Positions 228 to 25,659 of a stretch of 32,661 bases of DNA are shown here, in pieces. Origin of the DNA: a virus (taxonomy: Duplodnaviria > Caudoviricetes); the IMG/VR virus record IMGVR_UViG_3300036546_000268, positions 1-32,661 of that record; one strand, written 5' to 3'. A program made the translations under genes and the position numbers. Positions within the stretch are counted from its first letter, which is position 1, and each line of letters opens with the position of its first letter. The notes under the pieces were generated by a model. The model did no database searches. It was not told the DNA's origin and saw only the letters and a program-made list of their open reading frames with translations.

Positions 228-388
228 TACGCTTGAAATGATACACAGCGTAGAAAGACCAGGTAGCTTTTAAAGCTAAATATAATATTAAAAGAGATGA
301 AATATCCTGGCTAAAAACATCTCAAAGACTGAGTCACATTACATTTCGATGTTCAGTTATAAGGGGGTGAGAAAACTATTCCCCTTAT
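228..388 (+). ncRNA. Structured pseudoknotted RNA, copy 1 (family unknown)
   Basis: Five hairpins plus pseudoknot CCAGG(259-263)/CCTGG(306-310); same architecture as copy 2 with compensatory changes. Confidence 0.75.
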
Positions 389-395
389 CATCCGA

Positions 396-566
396 TTCTG
401 TGTTGTAAAATGCTTATAGCACAGAAATTCCACTCTGGGATGCATACCAGATATATAAAATCTTTCTGTATAGTGGTGTTAGAAAGATAAAGACCGTGTC
501 TCCTATAGATAGAACATAGACGTTCGGTTATAGACAGGTGAGAAAACTATTCCTGTCGTTTTTTTT
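396..566 (+). ncRNA. Structured pseudoknotted RNA, copy 2 (family unknown), ending in hairpin plus T8
   Basis: Pseudoknot CCACT(430-434)/AGTGG(472-476); identical 17-mer GGTGAGAAAACTATTCC at 366-382 and 537-553. Confidence 0.75.
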
Positions 567-712
567 GACATTCTCTACCCGTAGGGATGTAGTCAAGGCT
601 TTTAAGGTTGTGCCCGAATCAACCTGACTGGATATGGCATGATGTTGTTAGAGAAGTAGCAATCCCGCCATATCTCACCCGCATCTCATTTGTTTGGGTT
701 GCGGGAACAAAT
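565..712 (+). ncRNA. Putative third structured RNA (four consecutive stems)
   Basis: Stems TTGAC..GTCAA, AGGTTG/CAACCT, GATATGGC/GCCATATC, CCCGCA/TGCGGG; no credible ORF. Confidence 0.5.
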
Positions 713-813
713 TTTCTTAGATAGCATACACGTTTTTGCGCTAACTTTGAATTTTACGTGTTTTTTAAATTGTTTTTTGGCTGCAGGGCGTTGTGAAACG
801 CTCTGTCTGCAAC

Positions 814-884
814 GCTTCAGTCATATAACGGTATTATACCATTTTTGTAAAATGGTAATCGCAGTTCGACTCTGCGCTGAAGCT
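814..884 (+). tRNA. trnT: tRNA-Thr(TGT), CCA not encoded
   Basis: GCTTCAG/CTGAAGC acceptor; CCATT-TTTGTAA-AATGG anticodon arm (TGT at 846-848); CGCAG-TTCGACT-CTGCG T arm. Confidence 0.9.
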
Positions 885-925
885 CACGTTAAACTAATTA
901 TTAATTTTTTAATAAAAAAAACAAA

Positions 926-2254
926 ATGGAAAGGATTTTATTCAAGGATGGGAGTTATATCGAAATAAAAAAAGATGATATAACAGGAGAGACAAATATT
1001 GAACTTGTTTTTAAATCTAAGAAAGAATTTAAATTAAAGAATGGAGATTTTTTGTTCGAGGACGGCAGGATAATGATAGTCAAAAGCTATCCTTCAAACT
1101 ATCATGCTTTGATATATCCAGTAAGGGACGACAAGGTTCAGTACAATAGAAGATATGGCCTTCATTTTTCGCATCCGTCGTTTAGATACGCAACAGAAGT
1201 AGAAAAGCATGCGTTATTGGACGCTATAAGGAAAGATGGGAAGTATTGGGACGAAGATAATAAGTGCATAAAAGACATTCCTTCTAAAGATTTTGTTCCG
1301 AAGGATGGGGATTATGTCACAATAGAATATTCTGGAGATTCAAATTTTGAACCCGATTGTGAAACGAATAAGGTAGTTGGAATTTTGCGTGGAAAACTGT
1401 GCAAAGGGAATAATGGTTTTCCATTTTATGCAGGGATAAACTTGTCAGGCGAGCTGTGTTTATATGGAAGCTTTGGAAACAATGAAGGAGATATTTCGCG
1501 TCCCTCCACTGAAGAAGAGAGAAAGGAGTTGCTGGATATGTTGGAGGACTTTGCATTCTGGGAAAAGGCAGATAAAAAAGGTGGCGATGATAAAACCAAA
1601 AATCCACAACGAAAATTCAAGACTGGAGATAAGGTGCGTATAAAAGATGGCATTTCGAGTGAAACGCATTTTAGCGATTCTTTTGTTCCTGGGATGGATA
1701 AATTTTTAGGGAAGGTTCTTACAATAAAAGGATACGTTGCCGATGGGGATGTTGATATTATGGAAGATCCAAATTTTTTCTGGTTTTCTGAAGAATGGCT
1801 TGAACCGTGCATTGAAGAAATAAAACAAGACGACTGTCAAAAGCTACAGTCAAAATTCAAAATTGGTGATAAGGTGAGAATAAAGGACGGCATTTCGAGT
1901 GAAACGCATTTTTATAATGGATTTATTCCGCAAATGGATATATTGTTAGGAAAAGTTCTCACTATAAAAGAATGTATCGAAGATAAACGCGTCAGTATTG
2001 AAGAAGATTATTACGGCCTTTACTTCTCTGAAGATTGGCTTGAACCGGTTCCCGAATCCATAAAAATAGGAGATTGGGTAATTTATTTCCCTGATGAAAA
2101 CAAGAAATTAGCAACAGTCGGTATATTGAGCGACGTTGTTATTCATGATGGGAAGTTAGGATTTTTGATTGATAACAAGGTGTTTGTTCAACAGATAATC
2201 AAGTGGGAAGGCACTAAAGAACAATTAGAAAATGTTAGAAAGGGAGAATCGTGA
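926..2254 (+). CDS. Phage repeat-domain protein (two RxATEEEK-type domains and two SH3/KOW-like 'FKxGDKVRIK' domains)
   Basis: 442-aa ORF with AT-rich leader and visible internal repeats. Confidence 0.85.
   Translation: MERILFKDGSYIEIKKDDITGETNIELVFKSKKEFKLKNGDFLFEDGRIMIVKSYPSNYHALIYPVRDDKVQYNRRYGLHFSHPSFRYATEVEKHALLDAIRKDGKYWDEDNKCIKDIPSKDFVPKDGDYVTIEYSGDSNFEPDCETNKVVGILRGKLCKGNNGFPFYAGINLSGELCLYGSFGNNEGDISRPSTEEERKELLDMLEDFAFWEKADKKGGDDKTKNPQRKFKTGDKVRIKDGISSETHFSDSFVPGMDKFLGKVLTIKGYVADGDVDIMEDPNFFWFSEEWLEPCIEEIKQDDCQKLQSKFKIGDKVRIKDGISSETHFYNGFIPQMDILLGKVLTIKECIEDKRVSIEEDYYGLYFSEDWLEPVPESIKIGDWVIYFPDENKKLATVGILSDVVIHDGKLGFLIDNKVFVQQIIKWEGTKEQLENVRKGES
1612..2047 (+). repeat. Intragenic direct repeat, 240-bp offset
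   Basis: 1612-1807 resembles 1852-2047; GGCATTTCGAGTGAAACGCATTTT is identical in both. Confidence 0.9.
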
Positions 2255-2601
2255 GCACAGCAAAAATTATATCAGAAGTTATATCTTATATTGCCGATAG
2301 AAATGAAGAATGGGGAGAATTTACGATAGTACATGATGGATATACTTTCCATATTTACTATGACGCAGCCTTTGATACATTAGAATTTGAGCAGGTGATA
2401 TATAATGTCATAAGCGGAGAATACGTGTTCACTAATGAATTGCCATCATGGTTTGAAGATGATATTTTTAAATCGGTTGTTTTCTCAGTTATGGAATTAC
2501 GATATAAAGAGATAAAAGAGGAGAGAGAGATTGAATCGATGGAAAGGGGATTGGCCAAACAAAAATCCGAAAAGAAGAAAATAAACACTAATAATTCGTA
2601 A
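2251..2601 (+). CDS. Hypothetical protein
   Basis: GTGA overlap with upstream stop; 116 aa. Confidence 0.75.
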   Translation: MSTAKIISEVISYIADRNEEWGEFTIVHDGYTFHIYYDAAFDTLEFEQVIYNVISGEYVFTNELPSWFEDDIFKSVVFSVMELRYKEIKEEREIESMERGLAKQKSEKKKINTNNS

Positions 2602-2630
2602 AATGATTATTAATTTTTAAACAATAAAAT

Positions 2631-3323
2631 ATGAAAGAGATTGCAACAGCTTTTTTAAAAGCACAAAGTGAGATGAGCAACAAATCATATTATGTATATC
2701 TCCATAAAACTGTTAAAAATGGAATTGTATTTTATGTAGGGAAGGGATCTGGGTATAGGATGTTTGCTACTGGAAATAGAAGTAACGGGTGGAAACGAAT
2801 AGCAAAAAAATATGGGTTTATACCGGAAATAATAGAGGATAATTTAACAGAAGATGAGGCTTACAAAAAAGAGATTGAGTACATTAAATATTTCAAGGAT
2901 ATTGGATTGTGCGATGCAAACGTTTCGCTTGGAGGTAAGGGTGTCAACGTTCCTAAAAGATGGTGGGGAGAAAACATCTCTAAATCATTAATTGGCCTAA
3001 AAAGGGAATACGGGATTTTTAATAAATCTTATAAGAATTTTATAGACAAGGATACATTATTCGACCTTTATGTAAATAAAAACATGTCGTCAGTAGAAAT
3101 ATCTAAAAGATATGGAGTATCAATTGTCACTGTTTTGGCAAGATGTAGGGACTATGGAATTGAAGTATATCACGGAAAGAAAATACAGTGTACAACAGAC
3201 GGAAATATGTTTAACTCAATATCAGAAGCAGCTGAATACTACGGTGTATATCGTGAGAATATAAGAAAGGTTTTAGCTGGGAAATACAAAAAAACAGGAA
3301 ATAAACATTTTAAATATATATAA
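2631..3323 (+). CDS. GIY-YIG-like homing endonuclease with HTH/NUMOD1-like C-terminus; first 17 aa resemble the ERF N-terminus
   Basis: YVYLH...FYVGKG..R, EAYKKE, N-x-x-x-GG; C-terminal FNSISEAAEYYG. Confidence 0.85.
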   Translation: MKEIATAFLKAQSEMSNKSYYVYLHKTVKNGIVFYVGKGSGYRMFATGNRSNGWKRIAKKYGFIPEIIEDNLTEDEAYKKEIEYIKYFKDIGLCDANVSLGGKGVNVPKRWWGENISKSLIGLKREYGIFNKSYKNFIDKDTLFDLYVNKNMSSVEISKRYGVSIVTVLARCRDYGIEVYHGKKIQCTTDGNMFNSISEAAEYYGVYRENIRKVLAGKYKKTGNKHFKYI

Positions 3324-3324
3324 T

Positions 3325-3939
3325 ATGAAGAATATAGCAGCGGCATTATTAAATGCTCAGACACAAATGTCTAATCCGAAAAAAGATAATGAAAATCCAT
3401 TCTATCGGAATAAATATGCCGATTTGAATTCTGTTAGGGAGGCAGTTATTCCTCCGCTTAACGCTAATGGAATTGTAGTCTTGCAACCGATGACGGTTGT
3501 GGACGGGAAAAACTACATTAAGACGGTGTTTCTTCACGAAAGTGGAGAGACGATGGAAAGCCTAACGGAGATTATTTATTCCAAGCAGAACGATGCGCAA
3601 GCGCAGGGTAGCGGGATTACGTATGCCAGGAGATATGGGCTTCAGTCGTTGGCTTGTGTAGGCGCTGATGACGATGATGGGAATAAGGCGAGTAATCCAC
3701 AAGAGAAAGACGCTTCTGACAAACAGAAACCAACGCCTAAAACAATCCAAAAAGTTACTTCAAATCCGAAAGCAGATGAGATCGCTGTTGATTTGGCAGA
3801 GGCGAAAAAAGGAATTGCAAAATGTAAGACATCCGCTGACTTAATGGAAGTGTGGAATGTTTATAAGAATTTACAGGGAATAGCGGAATTTAAGCAAGAA
3901 ATGGCAGATGCAAAAAAACGACTTAATATTAAGAAATAG
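3325..3939 (+). CDS. erf: ERF-family single-strand annealing protein
   Basis: NPFYRNKYADL, QAQGSGITYARRYGL, DDDGN motifs. Confidence 0.93.
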   Translation: MKNIAAALLNAQTQMSNPKKDNENPFYRNKYADLNSVREAVIPPLNANGIVVLQPMTVVDGKNYIKTVFLHESGETMESLTEIIYSKQNDAQAQGSGITYARRYGLQSLACVGADDDDGNKASNPQEKDASDKQKPTPKTIQKVTSNPKADEIAVDLAEAKKGIAKCKTSADLMEVWNVYKNLQGIAEFKQEMADAKKRLNIKK

Positions 3940-4813
3940 CGGTGTCATACTGACTGAAGGACACGAGTACTGGCTGGGGGATGTTCGGCTACAAGGAATT
4001 ACCGGTATCATCTCCCGCCAGCTATTCCCAGATAAGTATAGTGCAGTACCTGACAAGATTCTTAAAGGTGCAGCTGAGCGCGGTACAAAGGTTCATGAAT
4101 CGTTGCAGGTATATGATATGTTTGGGGAAATAACCTGTGAAGAGGCGAGGTTATACGCTGAGCTGAAAGAGAAAGAAAAGTTTGAGGTTATAGATAGCGA
4201 ATATATCGTCACGGACTACAAAGATTTTGCGACGCCAGTGGATAAGGTTGTTCGATTTAAAGATACCCCTGATGGCACTGTCGATTTAGCAGACGTCAAA
4301 AACACGTCAGTACTTGATCAGAAGTATCTATCATGGCAATTATCAATATGCAAATACCTTTTCAGCATAGTCAATCCAGATATAAAGGTTGGTAAACTCT
4401 ACGCCGTATGGACAAAGAATGGCGTATCATTGCATCCTATAGATGAGATACCGCAGGAAGAGGTTATAGAACTCCTCAATTGTGAGAGAGACGGTAGGCA
4501 ATATGTAATGAAGGATATCTTAACTATTTCTGACGAGAAGGCTGTAGCTATTGTTCAGCAGATGTCTGAAGTGCTTGTAGAAATTGCTGAATTGCAAGCC
4601 AAACATGATACGTTTAAGCGACAGTTAGAACAGCTGTTCGAGGCATATGGCGTAGATAAATGGGATAACGATTTGTTTACAATAACACGGGTGAAAGAGT
4701 ATGAAAAATCAACGTTTGACAGCAAGAAATTCAAGGATGAGCATCCAAAAATATATGACAAGTATGTAAAAACGACGAGTGTTGAGCCAACAATTAGAAT
4801 AAAATTAAAGTAA
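3908..4813 (+). CDS. PD-(D/E)XK exonuclease, likely recombination partner of ERF
   Basis: AAERGTKVH, SEYIV, PVD, LADVKN, WQLSI motifs; adjacent to erf. Confidence 0.8.
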   Translation: MQKNDLILRNSGVILTEGHEYWLGDVRLQGITGIISRQLFPDKYSAVPDKILKGAAERGTKVHESLQVYDMFGEITCEEARLYAELKEKEKFEVIDSEYIVTDYKDFATPVDKVVRFKDTPDGTVDLADVKNTSVLDQKYLSWQLSICKYLFSIVNPDIKVGKLYAVWTKNGVSLHPIDEIPQEEVIELLNCERDGRQYVMKDILTISDEKAVAIVQQMSEVLVEIAELQAKHDTFKRQLEQLFEAYGVDKWDNDLFTITRVKEYEKSTFDSKKFKDEHPKIYDKYVKTTSVEPTIRIKLK

Positions 4814-4830
4814 TTAAAAACTAAAAAATC

Positions 4831-5136
4831 ATGATTAATTTAGGAATTTGTCTGAGTGACGTGCCAAAAGAACGTATTGTCACAGCTAAGAACGGGAAGA
4901 AGTATTTGAATGTAACAGTTGATGAACGAAGAGCCGAAGGTAAGTTTGGAGAGACACACACTGTCTATCTAACGCCATCGAAAGAAGAGCGTGAAGCAAA
5001 AGCTGACAAGGTTTATGTCGGAAGCGGGAAGGAGTTGGTTTTTGAAAACAGAGGACAGCATAAACCTGCGCCAGAAGAAAGGTATTCAGAACCAGAGGAT
5101 GCTCCGCTTGATGCAGGAGACGGTCTCCCTTTTTAA
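4831..5136 (+). CDS. Single-stranded DNA-binding protein-like
   Basis: KNGKKYLN motif, acidic tail ending in LPF, recombination-module position. Confidence 0.7.
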   Translation: MINLGICLSDVPKERIVTAKNGKKYLNVTVDERRAEGKFGETHTVYLTPSKEEREAKADKVYVGSGKELVFENRGQHKPAPEERYSEPEDAPLDAGDGLPF

Positions 5137-5174
5137 AATCACAGTCATGGATGATATTTTTAAAAATCACTGAT

Positions 5175-5327
5175 ATGGACGATATCGATAATGCTTATTG
5201 GGCTCGTGTGTTTAAGCGAGAAGCGGAGCAGTATGCAGGAATTGGGAAGGCTATCCTTGCAAACAGAGAGCGGGTAAAGGTTGGCAGCAATACAATCAAA
5301 TTGGTTCGCAAACATGCAACAAGATGA
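5175..5327 (+). CDS. Small hypothetical protein (50 aa, not in ORF track)
   Basis: MDDIDNAYWARVFKREAEQY...; fills the gap and overlaps the next start. Confidence 0.55.
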   Translation: MDDIDNAYWARVFKREAEQYAGIGKAILANRERVKVGSNTIKLVRKHATR

Positions 5328-5541
5328 ATTGCTTTCGATAATATCTGATATAGAAAATGAGTGCAGGCAGGCGCATACAGAGCCTGTCTGTGCCCCTTTC
5401 GTTGAAATAGATAGGAGATGTACGCCAGAGCAGAGAAAGACGCTCAGGGATGATTTAAATGAGCTTTACGCCGAAGGAAAGATACGTGTGTGGCAAGCAA
5501 TTAATGACACGATAATAAAATTAATAGAAAATGGAATTTAA
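5314..5541 (+). CDS. Hypothetical protein, possibly winged-helix
   Basis: ATG at 5314; N-terminus resembles 31705-31899. Confidence 0.7.
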   Translation: MQQDELLSIISDIENECRQAHTEPVCAPFVEIDRRCTPEQRKTLRDDLNELYAEGKIRVWQAINDTIIKLIENGI

Positions 5542-6409
5542 AAAATATCAACACGTTGAGCGGTTAGGAACAGTCGAAACAGATGGAATCGAGAATGGAC
5601 TCTGTTTTGTCTTCCCAAAAATCGACGGAAGTAATTCGCAATTGTGGTGGGATGCTGGATTACACGCTGGAAGCAGAAATCTGCAACTTTCGCATGAAAA
5701 AGATAATGCAGGCTTTTACAACTGGGCAATGGGTCAGGATAAATTTATCCAATTCTTTGCAAAATATCCCAATCTAAGGTTATACGGAGAATGGCTTGTA
5801 CCGCACACCTTGAGGACATATGTTGATTCAGCGTGGAGAAAGTTCTATGTTTTTGACGTTATGGAGGACGGAGAATATCTGCCGTACGAAAAATATAGTG
5901 TCATCCTTGATGAGTTCGGAATTGAATATATCCCACCGATTTGTAAGATTGAAAATCCTACCTATGAGCAGCTTATATCCCAGCTCGAGAAGAATACTTA
6001 TCTTATTGAGGATGGGAAAGGTGTTGGTGAGGGTATAGTCATAAAAAACTATGACTACAGGAACTGCTACGGACGTGTGACGTGGGCGAAAATTGTGCGT
6101 AATGAATTTAAAACACAGCACGGAAAAATTAAAGTTCCCGAGTTGAAGGGTGCGAAAGTAATCGAAGCGGAAATAGTCAATAAGTATGTTACACAAGCAT
6201 TGGTCGAAAAGGAGTTTTCCAAGATTGATAATGAGGTTGGGTGGAGTTCAAAACAGATACCCCGTTTACTAAACACGGTTTATTACTGTTTAGTAAAAGA
6301 AGAGTGTTGGAATTTCGTAAAAGAGTTCAAGAATCCGACTATTGACTTCAAGAAACTTGCAGTTTTTACAAACAACAAAGTTAAAGTGTTTTTGCCACAC
6401 TTATTTTAA
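5531..6409 (+). CDS. ATP-dependent RNA ligase (Rnl2-like)
   Basis: Nucleotidyltransferase motifs KIDGSN, LYGEW, FYVFDV, GEGIVIK, WAKIV. Confidence 0.88.
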   Translation: MEFKKYQHVERLGTVETDGIENGLCFVFPKIDGSNSQLWWDAGLHAGSRNLQLSHEKDNAGFYNWAMGQDKFIQFFAKYPNLRLYGEWLVPHTLRTYVDSAWRKFYVFDVMEDGEYLPYEKYSVILDEFGIEYIPPICKIENPTYEQLISQLEKNTYLIEDGKGVGEGIVIKNYDYRNCYGRVTWAKIVRNEFKTQHGKIKVPELKGAKVIEAEIVNKYVTQALVEKEFSKIDNEVGWSSKQIPRLLNTVYYCLVKEECWNFVKEFKNPTIDFKKLAVFTNNKVKVFLPHLF

Positions 6410-6411
6410 AA

Positions 6412-6858
6412 ATGAAACTAAATCTACTCAATACAACATCTGGACTTATTCCGCTATCGGATGATGATTATGACGAAAAGCATAAGCTAAAGATAGGAGA
6501 AGTATATGAGGCATCTATTGTGCTCAAACGCAATTATAGATTGCACAAACTTTTCTTTGCTTTAATAAATTGTGCTTTTGAGTATCTCAATGAAGAACAA
6601 ACAGAGAGGCTTGGCGGTTACAATCGTATCGGAAAAGAAAATTTCCGCAAAGACATGCTTATCGCAGCAGGTGTAACAACAAGCTACTATTCAGCTGTTG
6701 ATGGAGATTTTCGTGTTGAGGCAAAATCTTTAGCTTTTGACCGGATGGATGACGCCGAGTTTCGCGATGTTTATGATTCCGTTAAGGATGCTATTTTTCG
6801 TACAGTGTTGCGTGGAATAAGTGAAGAGGAATTTAATAAACGATTAATTGGATTTTGA
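6412..6858 (+). CDS. DUF1367/NinB-like protein
   Basis: RNYRLHKLFFAL and KSLAFDRMDDAEF motifs. Confidence 0.75.
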   Translation: MKLNLLNTTSGLIPLSDDDYDEKHKLKIGEVYEASIVLKRNYRLHKLFFALINCAFEYLNEEQTERLGGYNRIGKENFRKDMLIAAGVTTSYYSAVDGDFRVEAKSLAFDRMDDAEFRDVYDSVKDAIFRTVLRGISEEEFNKRLIGF

Positions 6859-6894
6859 CATAAACTACCACCAGCATAGCAGGTGATTTTAAAC

Positions 6895-8001
6895 CTAAGC
6901 AGAATGCAAAGAGCAATACATACTCGATTTTTCAGGTCGGTTTATGGCTACCCCCAGCGTAGCGATATTTATAGCCGCATTAAAATCGGCATCCATATCG
7001 TTTCCGCAGTTTGTACACTTGAAAGACTTGTTTTTTCGAGTGCCAATACAGTGGCAAACGCTGCAAGTCTGGGAAGTGTATGCAGGTTCAACGACAACAA
7101 TCTCAACACCGTTCAGTTTAGCTTTATACTCGATAAAGGAACGCAACTGGTAAAAAGACCAATTTCCAAGTTTTACTCTAAGCTTTTTATTTCTACGTTT
7201 AGAAGTGAACCGAATGTGAGTCAAATCTTCAATTGCAATACCTTTGCCCTGTTGCTTGGCAGACTGAACGAGTTTTTTAGAAATAGTGTGATTGATGATT
7301 GTTGCGGTAGTTTTTTCTTTGCCTTGAAGCCGTTTAGACAATTTCCGGCAATTCCTCTTAGTGGAACGCTTGGAAGTGTCTGCCTTTGCTTGAATAGAAC
7401 TACGAACCTTTTGCCTATGCTCACGGTAATTATTGAGAGTTTCGGCTGTATATTTTTCGCCATCAGAAGTGACAACTATATCTGTGATTCCTGCGTCAAC
7501 GCCAATAAAATCATCGACGTCGATAATATTCTCTTCTGGAACATCAACGATTTGAAAAAGATAGAATTTCCCTTTCTTATAAACCAAATCAGCTTGCCCC
7601 CTGATAAAATGGAAATAAGCAGTGTTATGGCAAATGAAATTGATTTTCTGCCTGCCACCTATACACCACAAAGAGACGACATTATTAGGTTTATATGTCA
7701 TTATGTCATGGTCATAAGTAATAGCACCAAGTGTTTTAAAGACACGTTTTGTTTTCTTATCCAGTTTGTAAGCGTTAGCAACTTTGGAGATTTGTCTTAT
7801 AATCATCTGCGAGGCAAGTTGAAATGTGGCCTTAATCGGATAATAAACTTCGTGGTGCAGTTTGAAATTATTGAAAATCTTTCTTTCCCAAGCCACGTCA
7901 GAAATGGCATTACAAACAGTATTTGCTTCAGTCATTGTTTCGAGAAGCAAATTGGCCTGTTCATCAGTAGGCAAGAGTTTTATTTTCAACGTCAATTTCA
8001 T
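6895..8001 (-). CDS. tnpB: TnpB RNA-guided endonuclease
   Basis: RuvC motifs GVDAG, IEDL, DADFNAAINI; zinc finger TSQTCSVC..FKCTNCG. Confidence 0.95.
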   Translation of the reverse strand: MKLTLKIKLLPTDEQANLLLETMTEANTVCNAISDVAWERKIFNNFKLHHEVYYPIKATFQLASQMIIRQISKVANAYKLDKKTKRVFKTLGAITYDHDIMTYKPNNVVSLWCIGGRQKINFICHNTAYFHFIRGQADLVYKKGKFYLFQIVDVPEENIIDVDDFIGVDAGITDIVVTSDGEKYTAETLNNYREHRQKVRSSIQAKADTSKRSTKRNCRKLSKRLQGKEKTTATIINHTISKKLVQSAKQQGKGIAIEDLTHIRFTSKRRNKKLRVKLGNWSFYQLRSFIEYKAKLNGVEIVVVEPAYTSQTCSVCHCIGTRKNKSFKCTNCGNDMDADFNAAINIATLGVAINRPEKSSMYCSLHSA

Positions 8002-8005
8002 GTAG

Positions 8006-8037
8006 CAAATATACTAATAACTTATTTAATATTCAAA
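8006..8037 (-). promoter_or_regulatory. Bacteroidota housekeeping-sigma promoter of tnpB (leaderless)
   Basis: TTTG-N20-TATATTTG ending 4 nt before the ATG. Confidence 0.75.
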
Positions 8038-8119
8038 TATATGAACAAAAAGCTATCAACTAAAGCCTGTAAGGAGCAGGATATGACCACAATACAAGGA
8101 TGTGGTTCTTAAAAATTAT

Positions 8120-8395
8120 ATGAAAAAAATATATCTTGCTTGCTATGATACTGGAGATTATGAAGATAAAGATGTTATTATTGTTTTTGCATCTAACAAC
8201 AAGCGTCTTGTAACAAAATGGGTTACAAAATTCAATAAGATTAAAAAAAGATGGGACGAATACTATAATCAATATTGTGATTTTAGATATTCGATATTAT
8301 GGGTGAAGGATGATTGTCCTGAATATATTTATAAAAGATGGTATAAAAATCGTTCTATAGGTAGAGCATACTATAAAGAAATAGAAATACGATAA
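8120..8395 (+). CDS. Hypothetical protein
   Basis: ORF in operon; ATG at 8120 preferred over GTG at 8102. Confidence 0.7.
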   Translation: MKKIYLACYDTGDYEDKDVIIVFASNNKRLVTKWVTKFNKIKKRWDEYYNQYCDFRYSILWVKDDCPEYIYKRWYKNRSIGRAYYKEIEIR

Positions 8396-11919: not shown

Positions 11920-12108
11920 ATGAATGAATATTTTTTACCAAACGATGTTGCTCGGTGTGAAAACGAGAGCTGTGATAAGAATGTCAAGTGTTCGAGATTT
12001 CTGGATGTTCTCCCGATGGAGAATTATACGTTTATTAAATTCAAAGCCGAAAATTGCGATTTTTTTATTGAAAAACAGAATATTAAACCTAAAAAAGAAA
12101 AGAAATGA
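11920..12108 (+). CDS. Small Cys-rich protein
   Basis: DVARC..C....C.R...C pattern; overlaps next start. Confidence 0.7.
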   Translation: MNEYFLPNDVARCENESCDKNVKCSRFLDVLPMENYTFIKFKAENCDFFIEKQNIKPKKEKK

Positions 12109-13244
12109 CAGATTTTAAAATTGGGAATAAAGTAAAGCTAAAAGACGGATTCAACCCGGAGGAACATAGGGAAGATAATAATCCGTTTGTTCAAGAGATG
12201 GATAAATACATTGGGACTACATTCTTTGTTGAGAAAATTGATGAGGACTACATAATCAGCGACGTTTGGCATTTTTATAAAGATTGGATTGAGATTGTTC
12301 CTAATCAAGATTCAAAAGAAGATGACGGTCAAGAAGAAAGTGTTTGCCTTGATGCGCGTCAGGACGAAAAGGCAAATCCAATATCCGGACTCCTTTCTTT
12401 CAATGGAGAGCTCAAAGCCGACGAAGTGATGAATCAAAGCACGATTCAAAAAGGAGACGCCTTGCGCTATGACAAAGGGAAGACTCAATTAGACCTTATA
12501 CCGCCGTTCGTTATAGAGCAACTTGGTAAGGTTCTTACTTTTGGGGCAGAGAAGTATGATAAAGATAATTATCGCAAAGGCATGAAGTGGAGCAAGGTCA
12601 TAGGTTCTTTAATGCGGCATATCAATGCGTTTAGGGCTGGTGAAGATTTTGACAAAGAAACGGGCATCTATCATATCGCGCATGCTATGTGCAACCTTAC
12701 GTTCCTGCTTGAATATTATCGTATTTACCCGCAAGGTGATGACAGGGTTCAAAAATATCTTGAAATGCCAACCGTTGGACTGGATATAGACGATGTGCTT
12801 GCAGATACTGTCAATTATTGGTGTAAATATCATCAATGCGATATCCCTGCATGGTGGCATGATTCAAACTTTAAGAAAGAGAGGTTTGATGCTCTCAATA
12901 ACAATAAAGATTTTTGGCTGAATATACCACCTAAAATAAAGCCGGAAGACCTTAACTTTGAACCTGTATGTTATGTGACGTCACGCTCTATACCGCAAGA
13001 GTGGACAAGAGAATGGCTTATAAAGAACGGATTTCCGGATGTAACGCTTATTTCTGTAGGTTACGGAAAAAGTAAGGTAGATGCTCTAAGGGGCATGTGC
13101 GACATATTCATTGATGACAGATTTGACAACTTTGTAGAGTTAAACCGGAATGGCATTTGCTGTTACCTCATGGATGCTCCTCACAATAAGAGATACGACG
13201 TTGGATATAAAAGGATTACGAACATTAAAGAATTTTTGAGATGA
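12105..13244 (+). CDS. Fusion: SH3-like domain + dATP/dGTP diphosphohydrolase (DUF5664) + HAD 5'(3')-nucleotidase
   Basis: RYDKGK, GAEKY..DNYRKG, SLMRH, ETGIYHIAHA; LDIDDVL, VTSR, FIDD. Confidence 0.85.
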   Translation: MTDFKIGNKVKLKDGFNPEEHREDNNPFVQEMDKYIGTTFFVEKIDEDYIISDVWHFYKDWIEIVPNQDSKEDDGQEESVCLDARQDEKANPISGLLSFNGELKADEVMNQSTIQKGDALRYDKGKTQLDLIPPFVIEQLGKVLTFGAEKYDKDNYRKGMKWSKVIGSLMRHINAFRAGEDFDKETGIYHIAHAMCNLTFLLEYYRIYPQGDDRVQKYLEMPTVGLDIDDVLADTVNYWCKYHQCDIPAWWHDSNFKKERFDALNNNKDFWLNIPPKIKPEDLNFEPVCYVTSRSIPQEWTREWLIKNGFPDVTLISVGYGKSKVDALRGMCDIFIDDRFDNFVELNRNGICCYLMDAPHNKRYDVGYKRITNIKEFLR

Positions 13245-18983: not shown

Positions 18984-19946
18984 TTATAAAACCAATTTAT
19001 CCTTTATCCCCTGTACTATATTTTCGGCATCCTCTTCGCATAATCCGAGCTGGAACATCAATTGTTTTTTAACAGCTGCCATTTTGTCAGGGTCTCCAGT
19101 CTTATCCGGATTAAGGTAACGTTTCTCTCCTGTAACGTTATCTGCAAAAGAAGAGATGATATATCTCTCTGTTTGATTCGTGTTCTTGTGCCCCATCATG
19201 GTCGATATCTGCTTTATAGTGTATCCATCCAGGTACAGGTTTGTCGCAAAACTCCTTCTCGCAGTGTGTGTAGCGACAAATCTCCATTTAGGTAGTGTTT
19301 GCCTCTTTCCTCTCTGGTATAAAGTCACTGGCTCGTTTATACCAACTTTTCTGCAAATATCTTTAATATATTGCCCGACGAGGGATGCCGGGTTTGCATA
19401 ATTATAAGCCCGCAGCTCTTCGATAAGAGATGGCACGAGAGGGTGTAGGGGCATGCGTGCGCTTACCTTTGTTTTTTCGGCCGTAAACCGAAGCTCATTC
19501 CCGTAAAAATTTGCTTCTGTTATGAGGGGATAATCTGTTACCCTGCATCCCGTATAAGCACACAATAAGAATGCCGCACGTGTAAATCGTTCAGTATCAA
19601 GTGACGGTGTGTAGTTCTCTATCATTTTTAGTTCAACAGGATTTAGGTACACGTGTTCTGACGCTTCCTGGCGAATAGATAACATCTTAACGACGTCTTC
19701 CTGGCTTATCGGAAACGTGTATCCAGATCGTTCTGCCTTCCAGAAGGCTTTTTTAAAATATCCAAGATAAACCCTTGCGCTATTCGGGGCTACTCTTCCC
19801 ATAGCATATGCCTTCAACCTCTCGAGAAATTCTAAGGTTATATCACTGTCGTTTATCTCATCCTTATATGATAAGAAATCAAAGAAGAACGTCCCGGCTT
19901 GGGTACGCTCCGTTTCCTTCAATAGAAATTGTTTGAATGTTACCAT
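18984..19946 (-). CDS. Tyrosine recombinase / integrase
   Basis: TGCR, K (AEKT), HTARRSFAT, MGH, TERY catalytic residues. Confidence 0.93.
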   Translation of the reverse strand: MVTFKQFLLKETERTQAGTFFFDFLSYKDEINDSDITLEFLERLKAYAMGRVAPNSARVYLGYFKKAFWKAERSGYTFPISQEDVVKMLSIRQEASEHVYLNPVELKMIENYTPSLDTERFTRAAFLLCAYTGCRVTDYPLITEANFYGNELRFTAEKTKVSARMPLHPLVPSLIEELRAYNYANPASLVGQYIKDICRKVGINEPVTLYQRGKRQTLPKWRFVATHTARRSFATNLYLDGYTIKQISTMMGHKNTNQTERYIISSFADNVTGEKRYLNPDKTGDPDKMAAVKKQLMFQLGLCEEDAENIVQGIKDKLVL

Positions 19947-19948
19947 GA

Positions 19949-20905
19949 TTATTCTGCTTTTTTGTTATAAAACCCTTGTCCTCTCACTAAACCATTATAT
20001 TCTGGTGAGCTGATTAAAAAGTCACCATGCCCGTTTAGTGTCTCAGCACCGTTTTCATCGAGCATAACACGTGAATCAGTGTGAGATGGCACTCGGAAAC
20101 ACATCTTAACCGGATAATTGACTTTTGCGTCTCCAGTTATTATCTTTGTTGACGCTCTCTGTGTAGCTGAAAGAATCCTGAATCCTGTTGAACGTCCTTT
20201 TTGTAATAACAGGCGCATATTTTCCTCGAGAGACTTATCATTCCCGAGCTGTTTCCAATTACGGGAATTTGCAAAAGCATCCGCAAACTCGTCAAATAGA
20301 ATAAGCGTTCTCTTGTTATAACCCTCTCTTATCCGTTTATTCATTTCATCAACGGCGATAGAAACAAATAGTTCAATTGATTCAATATCGTTTACTACAA
20401 GAATATTCCCTCCGTTATCGTATTCTGTAAATTCATATTTCGGGTCTAAAATGATAATCTCATCCATACCAGCCAGTATTGCATACTCAATTGTTGATCT
20501 GATGCAAACCGATTTCCCTGAACCAGTCGCTCCGCCAATAAGTATGTGCGGTGTTGCAGGATTATCTAAATCCCAGGTTATAGTACGTCCGAAGTTGTCA
20601 ATTCCCATAGGAATCTTTTGTTCGACCAATTTGTCCGGATCAAAATACAATATTTTATCTGATTTTATTCCAGCTTCGATTGGCAAGTACGATTTTCCGT
20701 TGTAAACCGTTAGTTTTGTTCCTATCCTCACGTTAGAGACGTTTAAAGATTTTGCTATATCGAGGGCGTATCGGTGTACTTTTTTTATTTGTACTCCATC
20801 ATCTACGTCGAGCAGGTAGGTAACACTCGAGTATCCATCGAAGGCATACGCCACCTTTGATTTTATTCCGAATGTTTTTAGCGTGTCCTCTATTCTTGTT
20901 CTCAT
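19949..20905 (-). CDS. FtsK/SpoIIIE-like ATPase (alpha/beta motor only)
   Basis: PHILIGGATGSGKS, ILDPK, LFDEFAD, LLQKGRSTG, ATQR, GAETLNGHGD. Confidence 0.9.
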   Translation of the reverse strand: MRTRIEDTLKTFGIKSKVAYAFDGYSSVTYLLDVDDGVQIKKVHRYALDIAKSLNVSNVRIGTKLTVYNGKSYLPIEAGIKSDKILYFDPDKLVEQKIPMGIDNFGRTITWDLDNPATPHILIGGATGSGKSVCIRSTIEYAILAGMDEIIILDPKYEFTEYDNGGNILVVNDIESIELFVSIAVDEMNKRIREGYNKRTLILFDEFADAFANSRNWKQLGNDKSLEENMRLLLQKGRSTGFRILSATQRASTKIITGDAKVNYPVKMCFRVPSHTDSRVMLDENGAETLNGHGDFLISSPEYNGLVRGQGFYNKKAE

Positions 20906-24730: not shown

Positions 24731-24863
24731 ATACGAAATTTAAATAGTCCTACGAAATGTTCGTAGAAATACGAAATTTAAATAGTGATACGAAATATAA
24801 ATAACATTATGAAAATCCCATAATATTACGAAATGTTCGTAGCAATACGAAGTTTTAGTAACC
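24731..24863. repeat. Seven 19-bp tandem units with TACGAA core
   Basis: TACGAA at 24732, 24751, 24770, 24789, (TATGAA 24808), 24827, 24846. Confidence 0.85.
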
Positions 24864-25563: not shown

Positions 25564-25659
25564 GTCATATGAAAAGTCAGTTTGACTGTCATATAAGAAG
25601 TCAGTTTGACTGTCATATAGAAAGTCAGTTTGATAGTCATATAAGATGACAGTTTCATA
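25564..25659. repeat. Four 24-bp iteron-like tandem repeats
   Basis: GTCATATnnnAAGTCAGTTTGACT-like unit x4 (fourth degenerate). Confidence 0.9.

Follow-up and report, generated by a model that had tools for sequence, protein, structure and literature searches.

Our comparative analyses show that the non-coding start of the window, which is the whole 32.7 kb virus record, carries two tandem copies of an RNA that belongs to a family under selection for its structure, the fold itself being predicted from the sequences. The family is apparently undescribed; its broad kind, the passenger RNAs of phage tRNA clusters, is known, and its fold is its own. As judged by comparison of its members, this conserved non-coding phage element likely acts as a small stand-alone RNA, and the explanation that we tentatively favor is that of a dispensable RNA that would be cut out by tRNA processing and would bind a host factor in trans.

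Copy 1 occupies positions 225–386 and copy 2 positions 396–557 of the plus strand, on which all elements named in this paragraph lie, and both have the layout that we term class I, in which a P1 hairpin, a pseudoknot, P2, and P3 precede a core. In copy 1, which is supported by shuffles, covariation, and a check of its helices, P1 (228–233/247–252) has 6 bp and a 13-nt loop that is kept across class I. It is followed by an H-type pseudoknot domain (259–323), in which the strand 259–263 pairs with positions 306–310 in the loop of P3 (294–299/318–323), and which encloses P2 (264–269/273–278) and an A/U linker. An AAA junction (324–326) leads into P4 (327–332/353–358, with a GU bulge and then three further pairs), and an AUA junction (359–361) into P5 (362–367/381–386); the conserved core (323–386) thus consists of C-AAA, P4, AUA, and P5 with its invariant GG/CC and its UGA…CUAUU loop. 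Copy 2 repeats this order with P1 at 399–408/414–423, which folding extends to 396–426 and whose loop deviates from the family consensus, a pseudoknot domain at 430–488 (pseudoknot 430–434/472–476, P2 434–438/447–451, P3 460–468/480–488), and a core at 489–557 that comprises the AAA junction (489–491), P4 (492–496/525–529), the AUA junction (530–532), and P5 (533–538/552–557). The last hairpin and the U run behind it, at about 559–567, give copy 2 a terminator-like end. The core model scores 58.7 bits for copy 1 and 58.3 bits for copy 2, and the class I model scores 161 bits for copy 1, which is itself in the training set of that model. The original prediction of two tandem structured RNAs between positions 228 and 566 was borne out, as all of the proposed helices were located and the folding energies of copy 1 (z −3.25) and copy 2 (z −3.70) each beat 200 of 200 shuffles; for the pseudoknot domain of copy 2, none of 20 shuffles was as good. 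A 17-mer common to both copies has two occurrences at up to three mismatches, versus 0.07 expected.

The placement of the helices could be kept, but the 5′ end of copy 1 is probably at 225 and not at 228, directly behind a discriminator at 224, because P1 begins 3–4 nt past the discriminator of a tRNA or tRNA-like gene in 6 of the 14 class I copies (by eye in the case of locus L104). The gene that likely supplies this end is a tRNA-like gene at 33–224 on the plus strand, in which the acceptor, D, and T arms are kept and about 127 nt replace the anticodon and variable arms; its tRNA model score of 23.7 bits is below the gathering score. A tRNA-Leu-like scaffold of this kind recurs in L003, L026, L033, L034, and L104, often directly before the RNA, with conserved acceptor, D, and T arms and anticodon/variable regions of very unequal length, which are normal in L026 and in L033 even longer than in the window; it is possibly a tRNA mimic or decoy. 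Two short resemblances to tRNAs were seen within the copies themselves. Seven bases at the start of the P1 loop (232–238) read like a tRNA-Ser(UGA) anticodon loop, and the P1 loops are 13–15 nt long, not 7; copy 2 and the anticodon region of the adjacent tRNA-Thr have 10 bases in common, a chance-level match here.

Homologs of class I were collected by scans with the P5 and P1 loop motifs, which gave 14 full-length copies, including the window pair, as well as one copy with a long P1 (L001) and one reduced to the 5′ half (L106). The P5 motif is independently supported, because L012, L015, L085, and L104 were found via the P1 loop alone and carry it. In a 13-row MAFFT alignment, some rows of which are closely related so that the cells do not count as independent events, the pairing of P1 holds in 100% of the cells, with changes on both sides in 4 of 6 pairs, that of the pseudoknot in 93.8%, with such changes in 3 of 5 pairs, and that of P4 and P5 in 98.7%; overall, 22 of 29 pairs have changed on both sides, and four and five distinct pair types are found at pseudoknot positions 4 and 5. 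In an unsupervised helix search of this alignment, the four longest helices with good pairing were P4, P1, P5, and the pseudoknot, and RNAalifold recovered the same helices as the covariation count. The covariation score of 0.658 was reached by none of 500 shuffles, and slid controls scored 0.165 at most. P3 is out of register in the MAFFT alignment and only 56% paired there, yet it has 5–10 bp in every copy. The strands come in the order pseudoknot 5′, P3 5′, pseudoknot 3′, P3 3′, with P2 inserted in the first loop, and this is the order of an H-type pseudoknot. The earlier claim that the stems of the copies covary, including the pseudoknot, therefore extends from two sequences to 13 aligned homologs, and the paired base changes in P1, the pseudoknot, P4, and P5 confirm that selection acts on the RNA structure.

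The RNA had been described as a family of about 165 nt. This form is real, but it is only one class, and the constant unit is a 3′ core of 60–70 nt that can be written as helix-(C)AAA-G[P4]Y-AUA-4 bp-GG-UGA-[variable cap]-CUAUU-CC. The succession AAA-P4-AUA-P5 was found behind other 5′ sequences and was structured in 7 of 11 loci of one scan and in 17 of 18 loci of another, with several of these loci representing the same phage. Allowing a variable cap length added 68 loci, and 19 of 70 hits passed the stem filter. A descriptor of the core detected 53 distinct cores, three of them doubtful, versus a single hit in three shuffles of the same DNA, a lenient control given that the searched loci had been selected for the motif; there are thus about 50 distinct cores, nearly all in uncultured phages. 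In 36 representative cores, the base preceding AAA is C in 27, the opening pair of P4 is G-C in 19 and G·U in 16, the junction between P4 and P5 is mostly AUA, P4 spans 18–91 nt, and the cap 5–11 nt. As the opening G·U would be A·C on the opposite strand, the plus strand is fixed. Doubtful cores that lie in ORFs or are without P4 (L054, L201, L211, L055, L198, L207, and L219) were left out of these statistics; L205 and L212 have a P5 without a clear P4, and L231 has a weak P4.

The helix between AUA and GG has 4 bp in 32 of the 36 cores and 3 bp in the other 4, and its pairs covary freely, whereas GG/CC never changes in these rows, for whose selection a partial stem filter was applied. The search patterns themselves imposed some of this invariance, and they were relaxed as a test: other G/C closing pairs in place of GG/CC yielded eight new loci and a loosened UGA/UAY yielded 14, none of which was structured. 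About 20 bases are near-invariant, and they are found in the junctions and in one internal loop. Because the spacing from AUA to GG is fixed at 4 bp, the data suggest a model in which the two junctions, AAA and AUA, form one tertiary surface with the P5 loop. The junction AGC is seen only in the cores of L012 (1379–1435) and L085 (1373–1429, minus strand), and UACU in the P5 loop again only in these two, a coincidence that amounts to one or two events and possibly reflects tertiary or protein-mediated coupling.

This 3′ core is joined to differing 5′ domains, sometimes in tandem. The modules travel separately, because the class I 5′ domain occurs without a core in L106 (1496–1600, directly after tRNA-Met), which has retained the 5′ half alone, and the P1 hairpin occurs without the rest of class I in L013, L082, and L100; most 5′ types are without any P1. 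A pseudoknot can be drawn before 29 of 40 cores, but likewise in 53.5% of shuffles, and it is matched by at most one of 20 shuffles in 20 of the 40 cores. A pseudoknot in every 5′ type is therefore not established; it is convincing before 20 of 40 cores. Minimal tandem units of about 90–110 nt are present in L192, L247, and L256, the shortest natural forms, in L192 and L247, measuring 70–90 nt, and one 177 kb record has three core copies and a fourth weak match inside an ORF. Separated modules, with the P1 hairpin alone or before other folds, were also seen in loci such as L017, L020, and L021, and in L004 the core is flanked, immediately 5′ and 3′, by two copies of a short unit that looks like a pseudoknot. 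A 244 kb metagenome contig has three identical copies (L023, L024, and L029) at intervals of 92.9 kb and is probably a concatenated assembly of one phage genome.

Outside these uncultured phages, the RNA was hardly found. No cultured carrier emerged: with blastn, the window region and the regions or motifs of four relatives gave nothing, or chance hits in ORFs, among 50,697 phage records; five whole named phage records had no match to the core model in a run without a positive control; and the best of 77 loci around Erf relatives scored 22.9 bits, not near the scores of members. Among 185,579 genomes, two motif hits were obtained, of which one was structured and lay on a 5.4 kb contig. The loop pattern occurred in 18 of 401 genomes versus 13 control matches, with the full core in none, and 151 genomes of the phylum of a Flavobacteriaceae genome gave four weak model matches, none with a sound P4 and a consensus loop, and hence no host RNA that the core could mimic. 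As cellular genomes are almost without the core, an origin from, or mimicry of, host genomes was rejected.

The expectation that the RNA belongs to no Rfam family held for the window and for 40 related loci. With Rfam 15, no match at the gathering score was obtained in the window, only short, cut, or opposite-strand noise touched 228–566 at E values up to 10, and only tRNA, tmRNA, and tRNA-derived models matched in the 40 loci at E values up to 0.5. The C-AAA-G junction may resemble the c-di-GMP-I riboswitch, and the P5 loop twister sister, but the models of both had no match to the RNA. The hammerhead core consists of CUGANGA and GAAA around a three-way junction; this motif is absent from both copies and occurs near 2 of 36 cores, both in L068, and Rfam gave no hammerhead match. 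Type III antitoxin RNAs consist of short repeated pseudoknots, with a conserved gene for an RNase toxin directly downstream, and this candidate was dropped, as the 41 loci share no neighboring protein and the units measure 70–170 nt with two extra hairpins. For a theta/HDV-like RNA, a descriptor of the nested double pseudoknot with the J4/2 cytosine, the latter taken from PMC10879173, and run without a known positive, had no hit on either strand of either copy and one in 20 shuffles. Twister, twister sister, pistol, as well as hatchet were rejected because their topologies, as described in PMC6154101, differ from the covarying helices (in pistol, the P1 loop pairs with J2/3; hatchet has P1–P4, with P2 and P3 separated by conserved bulges; a pseudoknot is absent from twister sister), and because Rfam gave no match. 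The original impression that the RNA could not be matched to hammerhead, twister, pistol, hatchet, or HDV/theta ribozymes or to a riboswitch thus agrees with the Rfam searches and with the negative topology and descriptor tests.

Nevertheless, several known RNAs are similar in part. According to PMC6154101, twister sister, pistol, hatchet, and hammerhead ribozymes are likewise small, with about 10–20 invariant bases, and found in phage-type neighborhoods; the RNA described here differs by having three helices in series without a closing stem. Theta ribozymes also contain pseudoknots and, in phages of Bacteroidota and Bacillota, directly follow tRNAs on the 3′ side (PMC10879173), whereas here there is no nested double pseudoknot and no J4/2 cytosine, and the distance between core and tRNA is variable. 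In T4, rnaC and rnaD (species 1/2, RNAC/RNAD) are small RNAs beside tRNA genes in the phage tRNA cluster, a precedent for passenger RNAs of such regions with a role that is unknown (PMC3014915 and PMC9697503). T4 rnaD begins 1 nt after tRNA-Arg, and rnaC ends with a T-arm-like hairpin, unlike the present RNA, in which none of 36 cores has CCA directly after P5; neither the T4 tRNA region nor the whole T4 record contains a core match, and no motif is shared. GOLLD and ROOL are phage or prophage RNAs near tRNA islands whose function is unknown, and GOLLD likewise combines a conserved 3′ part with a variable 5′ part (PMC12286853 and PMC5737381); however, GOLLD is often longer than 800 nt and both assemble into cages made of RNA alone, whereas the units here measure 70–170 nt, and the Rfam models of both have no match to the RNA. 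In a full-text literature search, the RNA family was not described and the motif strings appeared in no paper searched. They were also absent from the searchable supplements of the Fremin catalogs (PMC10690425 and PMC8040213), and the family may be among the thousands of unnamed candidates in the supplements of these two papers and of PMC5737381.

The original prediction had placed the RNA in a tRNA cluster, and this linkage is not confined to the window. Counted over 65 sequence clusters of motif hits, a tRNA, tmRNA, or tRNA-like gene lies within 1 kb in 14 of the 30 clusters with a full P5 stem versus 3 of the 35 others (p = 6e-4), the three being themselves members with one mismatch, and 41 of 41 tRNA genes are on the same strand as the RNA. 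The remaining 16 stem-bearing clusters have no tRNA in the DNA examined, up to 1 kb on each side. P5 ends 7–8 nt before a tRNA in L043 and L050, and in L027 (1165–1768, minus strand) a whole class I RNA is contained in the segment that separates the two pieces of a permuted tmRNA gene. The distance of the core ranges from 57 to over 900 nt for the upstream tRNA and from 7 to over 400 nt for the downstream tRNA. Copies in L008, L012, L085, L104, and L068 end 24–26 nt ahead of an ORF, which in L008 and L012 encodes 67 aa without a Pfam match and begins 24–25 nt downstream; many other copies are far from any ORF or upstream of tRNAs. When neighboring proteins were compared, no family was common to more than 3 of 41 loci, and the RNA therefore has no fixed gene to regulate and no partner in cis. 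Same-strand tRNA linkage without a fixed partner gene, as it characterizes the small RNAs of phage tRNA clusters, is thus what we found.

A new class of small self-cleaving ribozymes would be another way to account for these data, though we regard it as unlikely. C-AAA-G, Y-AUA, and GG-UGA/CUAUU-CC would then be the active site, the 5′ pseudoknot an accessory folding domain that is interchangeable between fusions, and the substrate the polycistronic phage transcripts; with the same low probability, such a ribozyme could have spread in phages of more than one bacterial phylum, cutting tRNA-cluster and early transcripts. The roughly 20 near-invariant junction and loop bases, the fixed spacing of AUA and GG next to free peripheral lengths, and the tandem minimal units would fit such a ribozyme, and so would the tRNA-adjacent phage setting, which is like that of theta ribozymes (PMC10879173). 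However, the cleavage site of theta ribozymes lies no more than 5 nt from the tRNA, whereas the register of core and tRNA is not fixed here, even if the 5′ edge adjoins a discriminator in 6 of 14 class I copies. Together with the 16 of 30 clusters without a tRNA, the variable register weakens a theta-like role in tRNA 3′-processing, one form of the processing ribozyme that had been considered originally. Furthermore, no known ribozyme family matches the RNA or adjoins it in 40 loci, comparably conserved motifs such as DUF3800-I, FuFi-1, as well as skipping-rope failed in self-cleavage tests, and a downstream terminator, as the end of copy 2 resembles, is at odds with self-cleavage (both PMC5737381).

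The RNA is absent from a close relative. The complete 63 kb phage L257 is 91–97% identical over window positions 618–8257, and the similarity ends 60 nt after copy 2, where L257 carries other non-coding DNA and has kept the tRNA-Thr(TGT) (814–885, plus strand) that ends the non-coding cluster of the window. A search with the core model detected no core in L257, and the RNA is dispensable, as this near-identical phage lives without it and retains the same downstream operon. Because L257 carries other non-coding DNA at this place, the RNA pair and its tRNA-like neighbor represent an exchangeable accessory cassette. In the window, positions 1–925 have no ORF of 60 aa except a weak one at 690–968, and a run of further hairpins at 560–812 (z −3.4) is mostly common to L257; a hairpin resembling the one at about 678–712 also stands ahead of the RNA in L015, L034, and L036. 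The DNA that replaces the cassette in L257 (about 1990–2540) contains a tRNA-like gene with a CAT triplet and, probably, another structured RNA; it has no Rfam match, and on visual inspection part of it looks similar to DNA upstream of the copy in L003.

The dispensability bears on a put-like cis element, in which the nascent two-hairpin core would, by analogy, bind the host RNA polymerase or an elongation factor and suppress termination in early and tRNA operons, a reading that we consider rather improbable. The RNA stands close behind a promoter-like site in L008, L012, and L033, sites that we assigned by a promoter consensus, and class I copies precede recombination or replication operons in the window, L003, L008, and L104. 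According to PMC9378689, the putRNAs of HK022 are about 70 nt long with two stem-loops, non-canonical pairs in stem II, and two copies per genome downstream of early promoters, so that the core matches them in size and layout, in having more than one copy per genome, and in its early-operon position in some phages. However, L257 dispenses with the RNA before the same operon, tandem copies and a copy in a tmRNA spacer would be unneeded for antitermination, the copies of L361 come last in a series of genes and are followed by a new promoter-like site and a terminator, and the RNA has no sequence match to any Rfam family. PutRNAs also differ in that the present RNA has a 5′ pseudoknot domain, a 3-nt junction between the stems, and sites in tRNA clusters and a tmRNA spacer.

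Two further readings are weaker. The pseudoknot, the purine-rich invariant junctions, and the copies that end shortly before an ORF would suit an aptamer, either as a riboswitch-like cis regulator or as an RNA sponge for a small signaling molecule, which we think improbable: the downstream gene is inconsistent, many copies are distant from ORFs or upstream of tRNAs, and there is no Rfam riboswitch match. A riboswitch as such was rejected, since neither a consistent 5′ UTR position before one gene class nor a recurring expression platform was found. Interdigitated T-loop pairs occur in T-box stem I, RNase P, and the L1 stalk, and the P1 and P5 loops could form such a pair and bind the tRNA elbow, as U-G-N-R-A starts both loops in both window copies and the RNA is linked to tRNAs. 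This version of the originally suggested tRNA-binding RNA is weakened, because only 19 of 36 P5 loops start with the T-loop pattern U-N-N-R-A; the cap length varies between 5 and 11 nt and P1 is missing from most 5′ types, and the double T-loop idea, to which we attach very little probability, was dropped.

The trans-acting host-factor site fits best because the invariant paired GG/CC and the asymmetric loop come with no fixed gene and no fixed tRNA distance, and it agrees with an invariant core with free periphery and the bead-like packing in tRNA clusters. On the other hand, 16 of the 30 stem-bearing clusters have no tRNA in the DNA examined, a U-rich tail after the core is present in only 2 of 36 cases, the placement between a promoter-like site and an ORF in L008 and L012 would fit a leader equally well, and self-cleaving ribozymes just as typically combine a small invariant core with helices that vary. 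In our proposal, the cluster would be transcribed as one precursor with the neighboring tRNA genes, and host tRNA-processing nucleases would likely free the RNAs, of about 160 nt, with the cut after the upstream discriminator giving the 5′ end and RNase P at the next tRNA, or the terminator U run after copy 2, giving the 3′ end. The 5′ pseudoknot domain may shield the 5′ end, a tertiary fold may place both junctions, AAA and AUA, close to the loop of P5, and a host protein is likely bound and sequestered by the predicted 3′ core. A defense or translation-control protein would be only the most plausible guess for this target, as no host RNA mimicked by the core was found.

The host of the window phage is likely a member of Bacteroidota, as had been presumed, because its primase-helicase is closest, over the full length, to that of a Bacteroides uniformis phage (42%). 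The host range of the family is probably wider, as far as sequence similarity can tell; the integrase beside the L250 copy is closest to those of Enterocloster phages, at 33% only. Further genes of the window code for an annealing protein of the Erf type, an exonuclease like RecE, an RNA ligase, and an integrase, the latter beside an FtsK/SpoIIIE-like gene (18984–20905, minus strand) against the main gene direction. The RNA ligase (5531–6409) is not tied to the RNA, as L257 has a ligase region too; together with a dATP/dGTP diphosphohydrolase that carries a fused region weakly matching polynucleotide kinase (12105–13244), it represents possible RNA repair and base-modification functions. An ORF-free gap of 1.2 kb between divergent gene blocks contains a repeat with a 19-bp period and three 24-bp direct repeats (24732–24860 and 25564–25655), like a replication origin, an operator array, or a packaging region.

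In summary, dozens of unrelated uncultured phages carry a compact, strongly covarying motif that no Rfam family contains, and its exchange between phages that are otherwise nearly identical would point to a role in conflict with, or adaptation to, the host. Whichever of the leading readings is true, the outcome would be new: a ribozyme class, a second type of protein-free antiterminator beyond HK022 put, or a named target, and the latter, if true, would account for one of those small RNAs in phage tRNA clusters that have long lacked an explanation.
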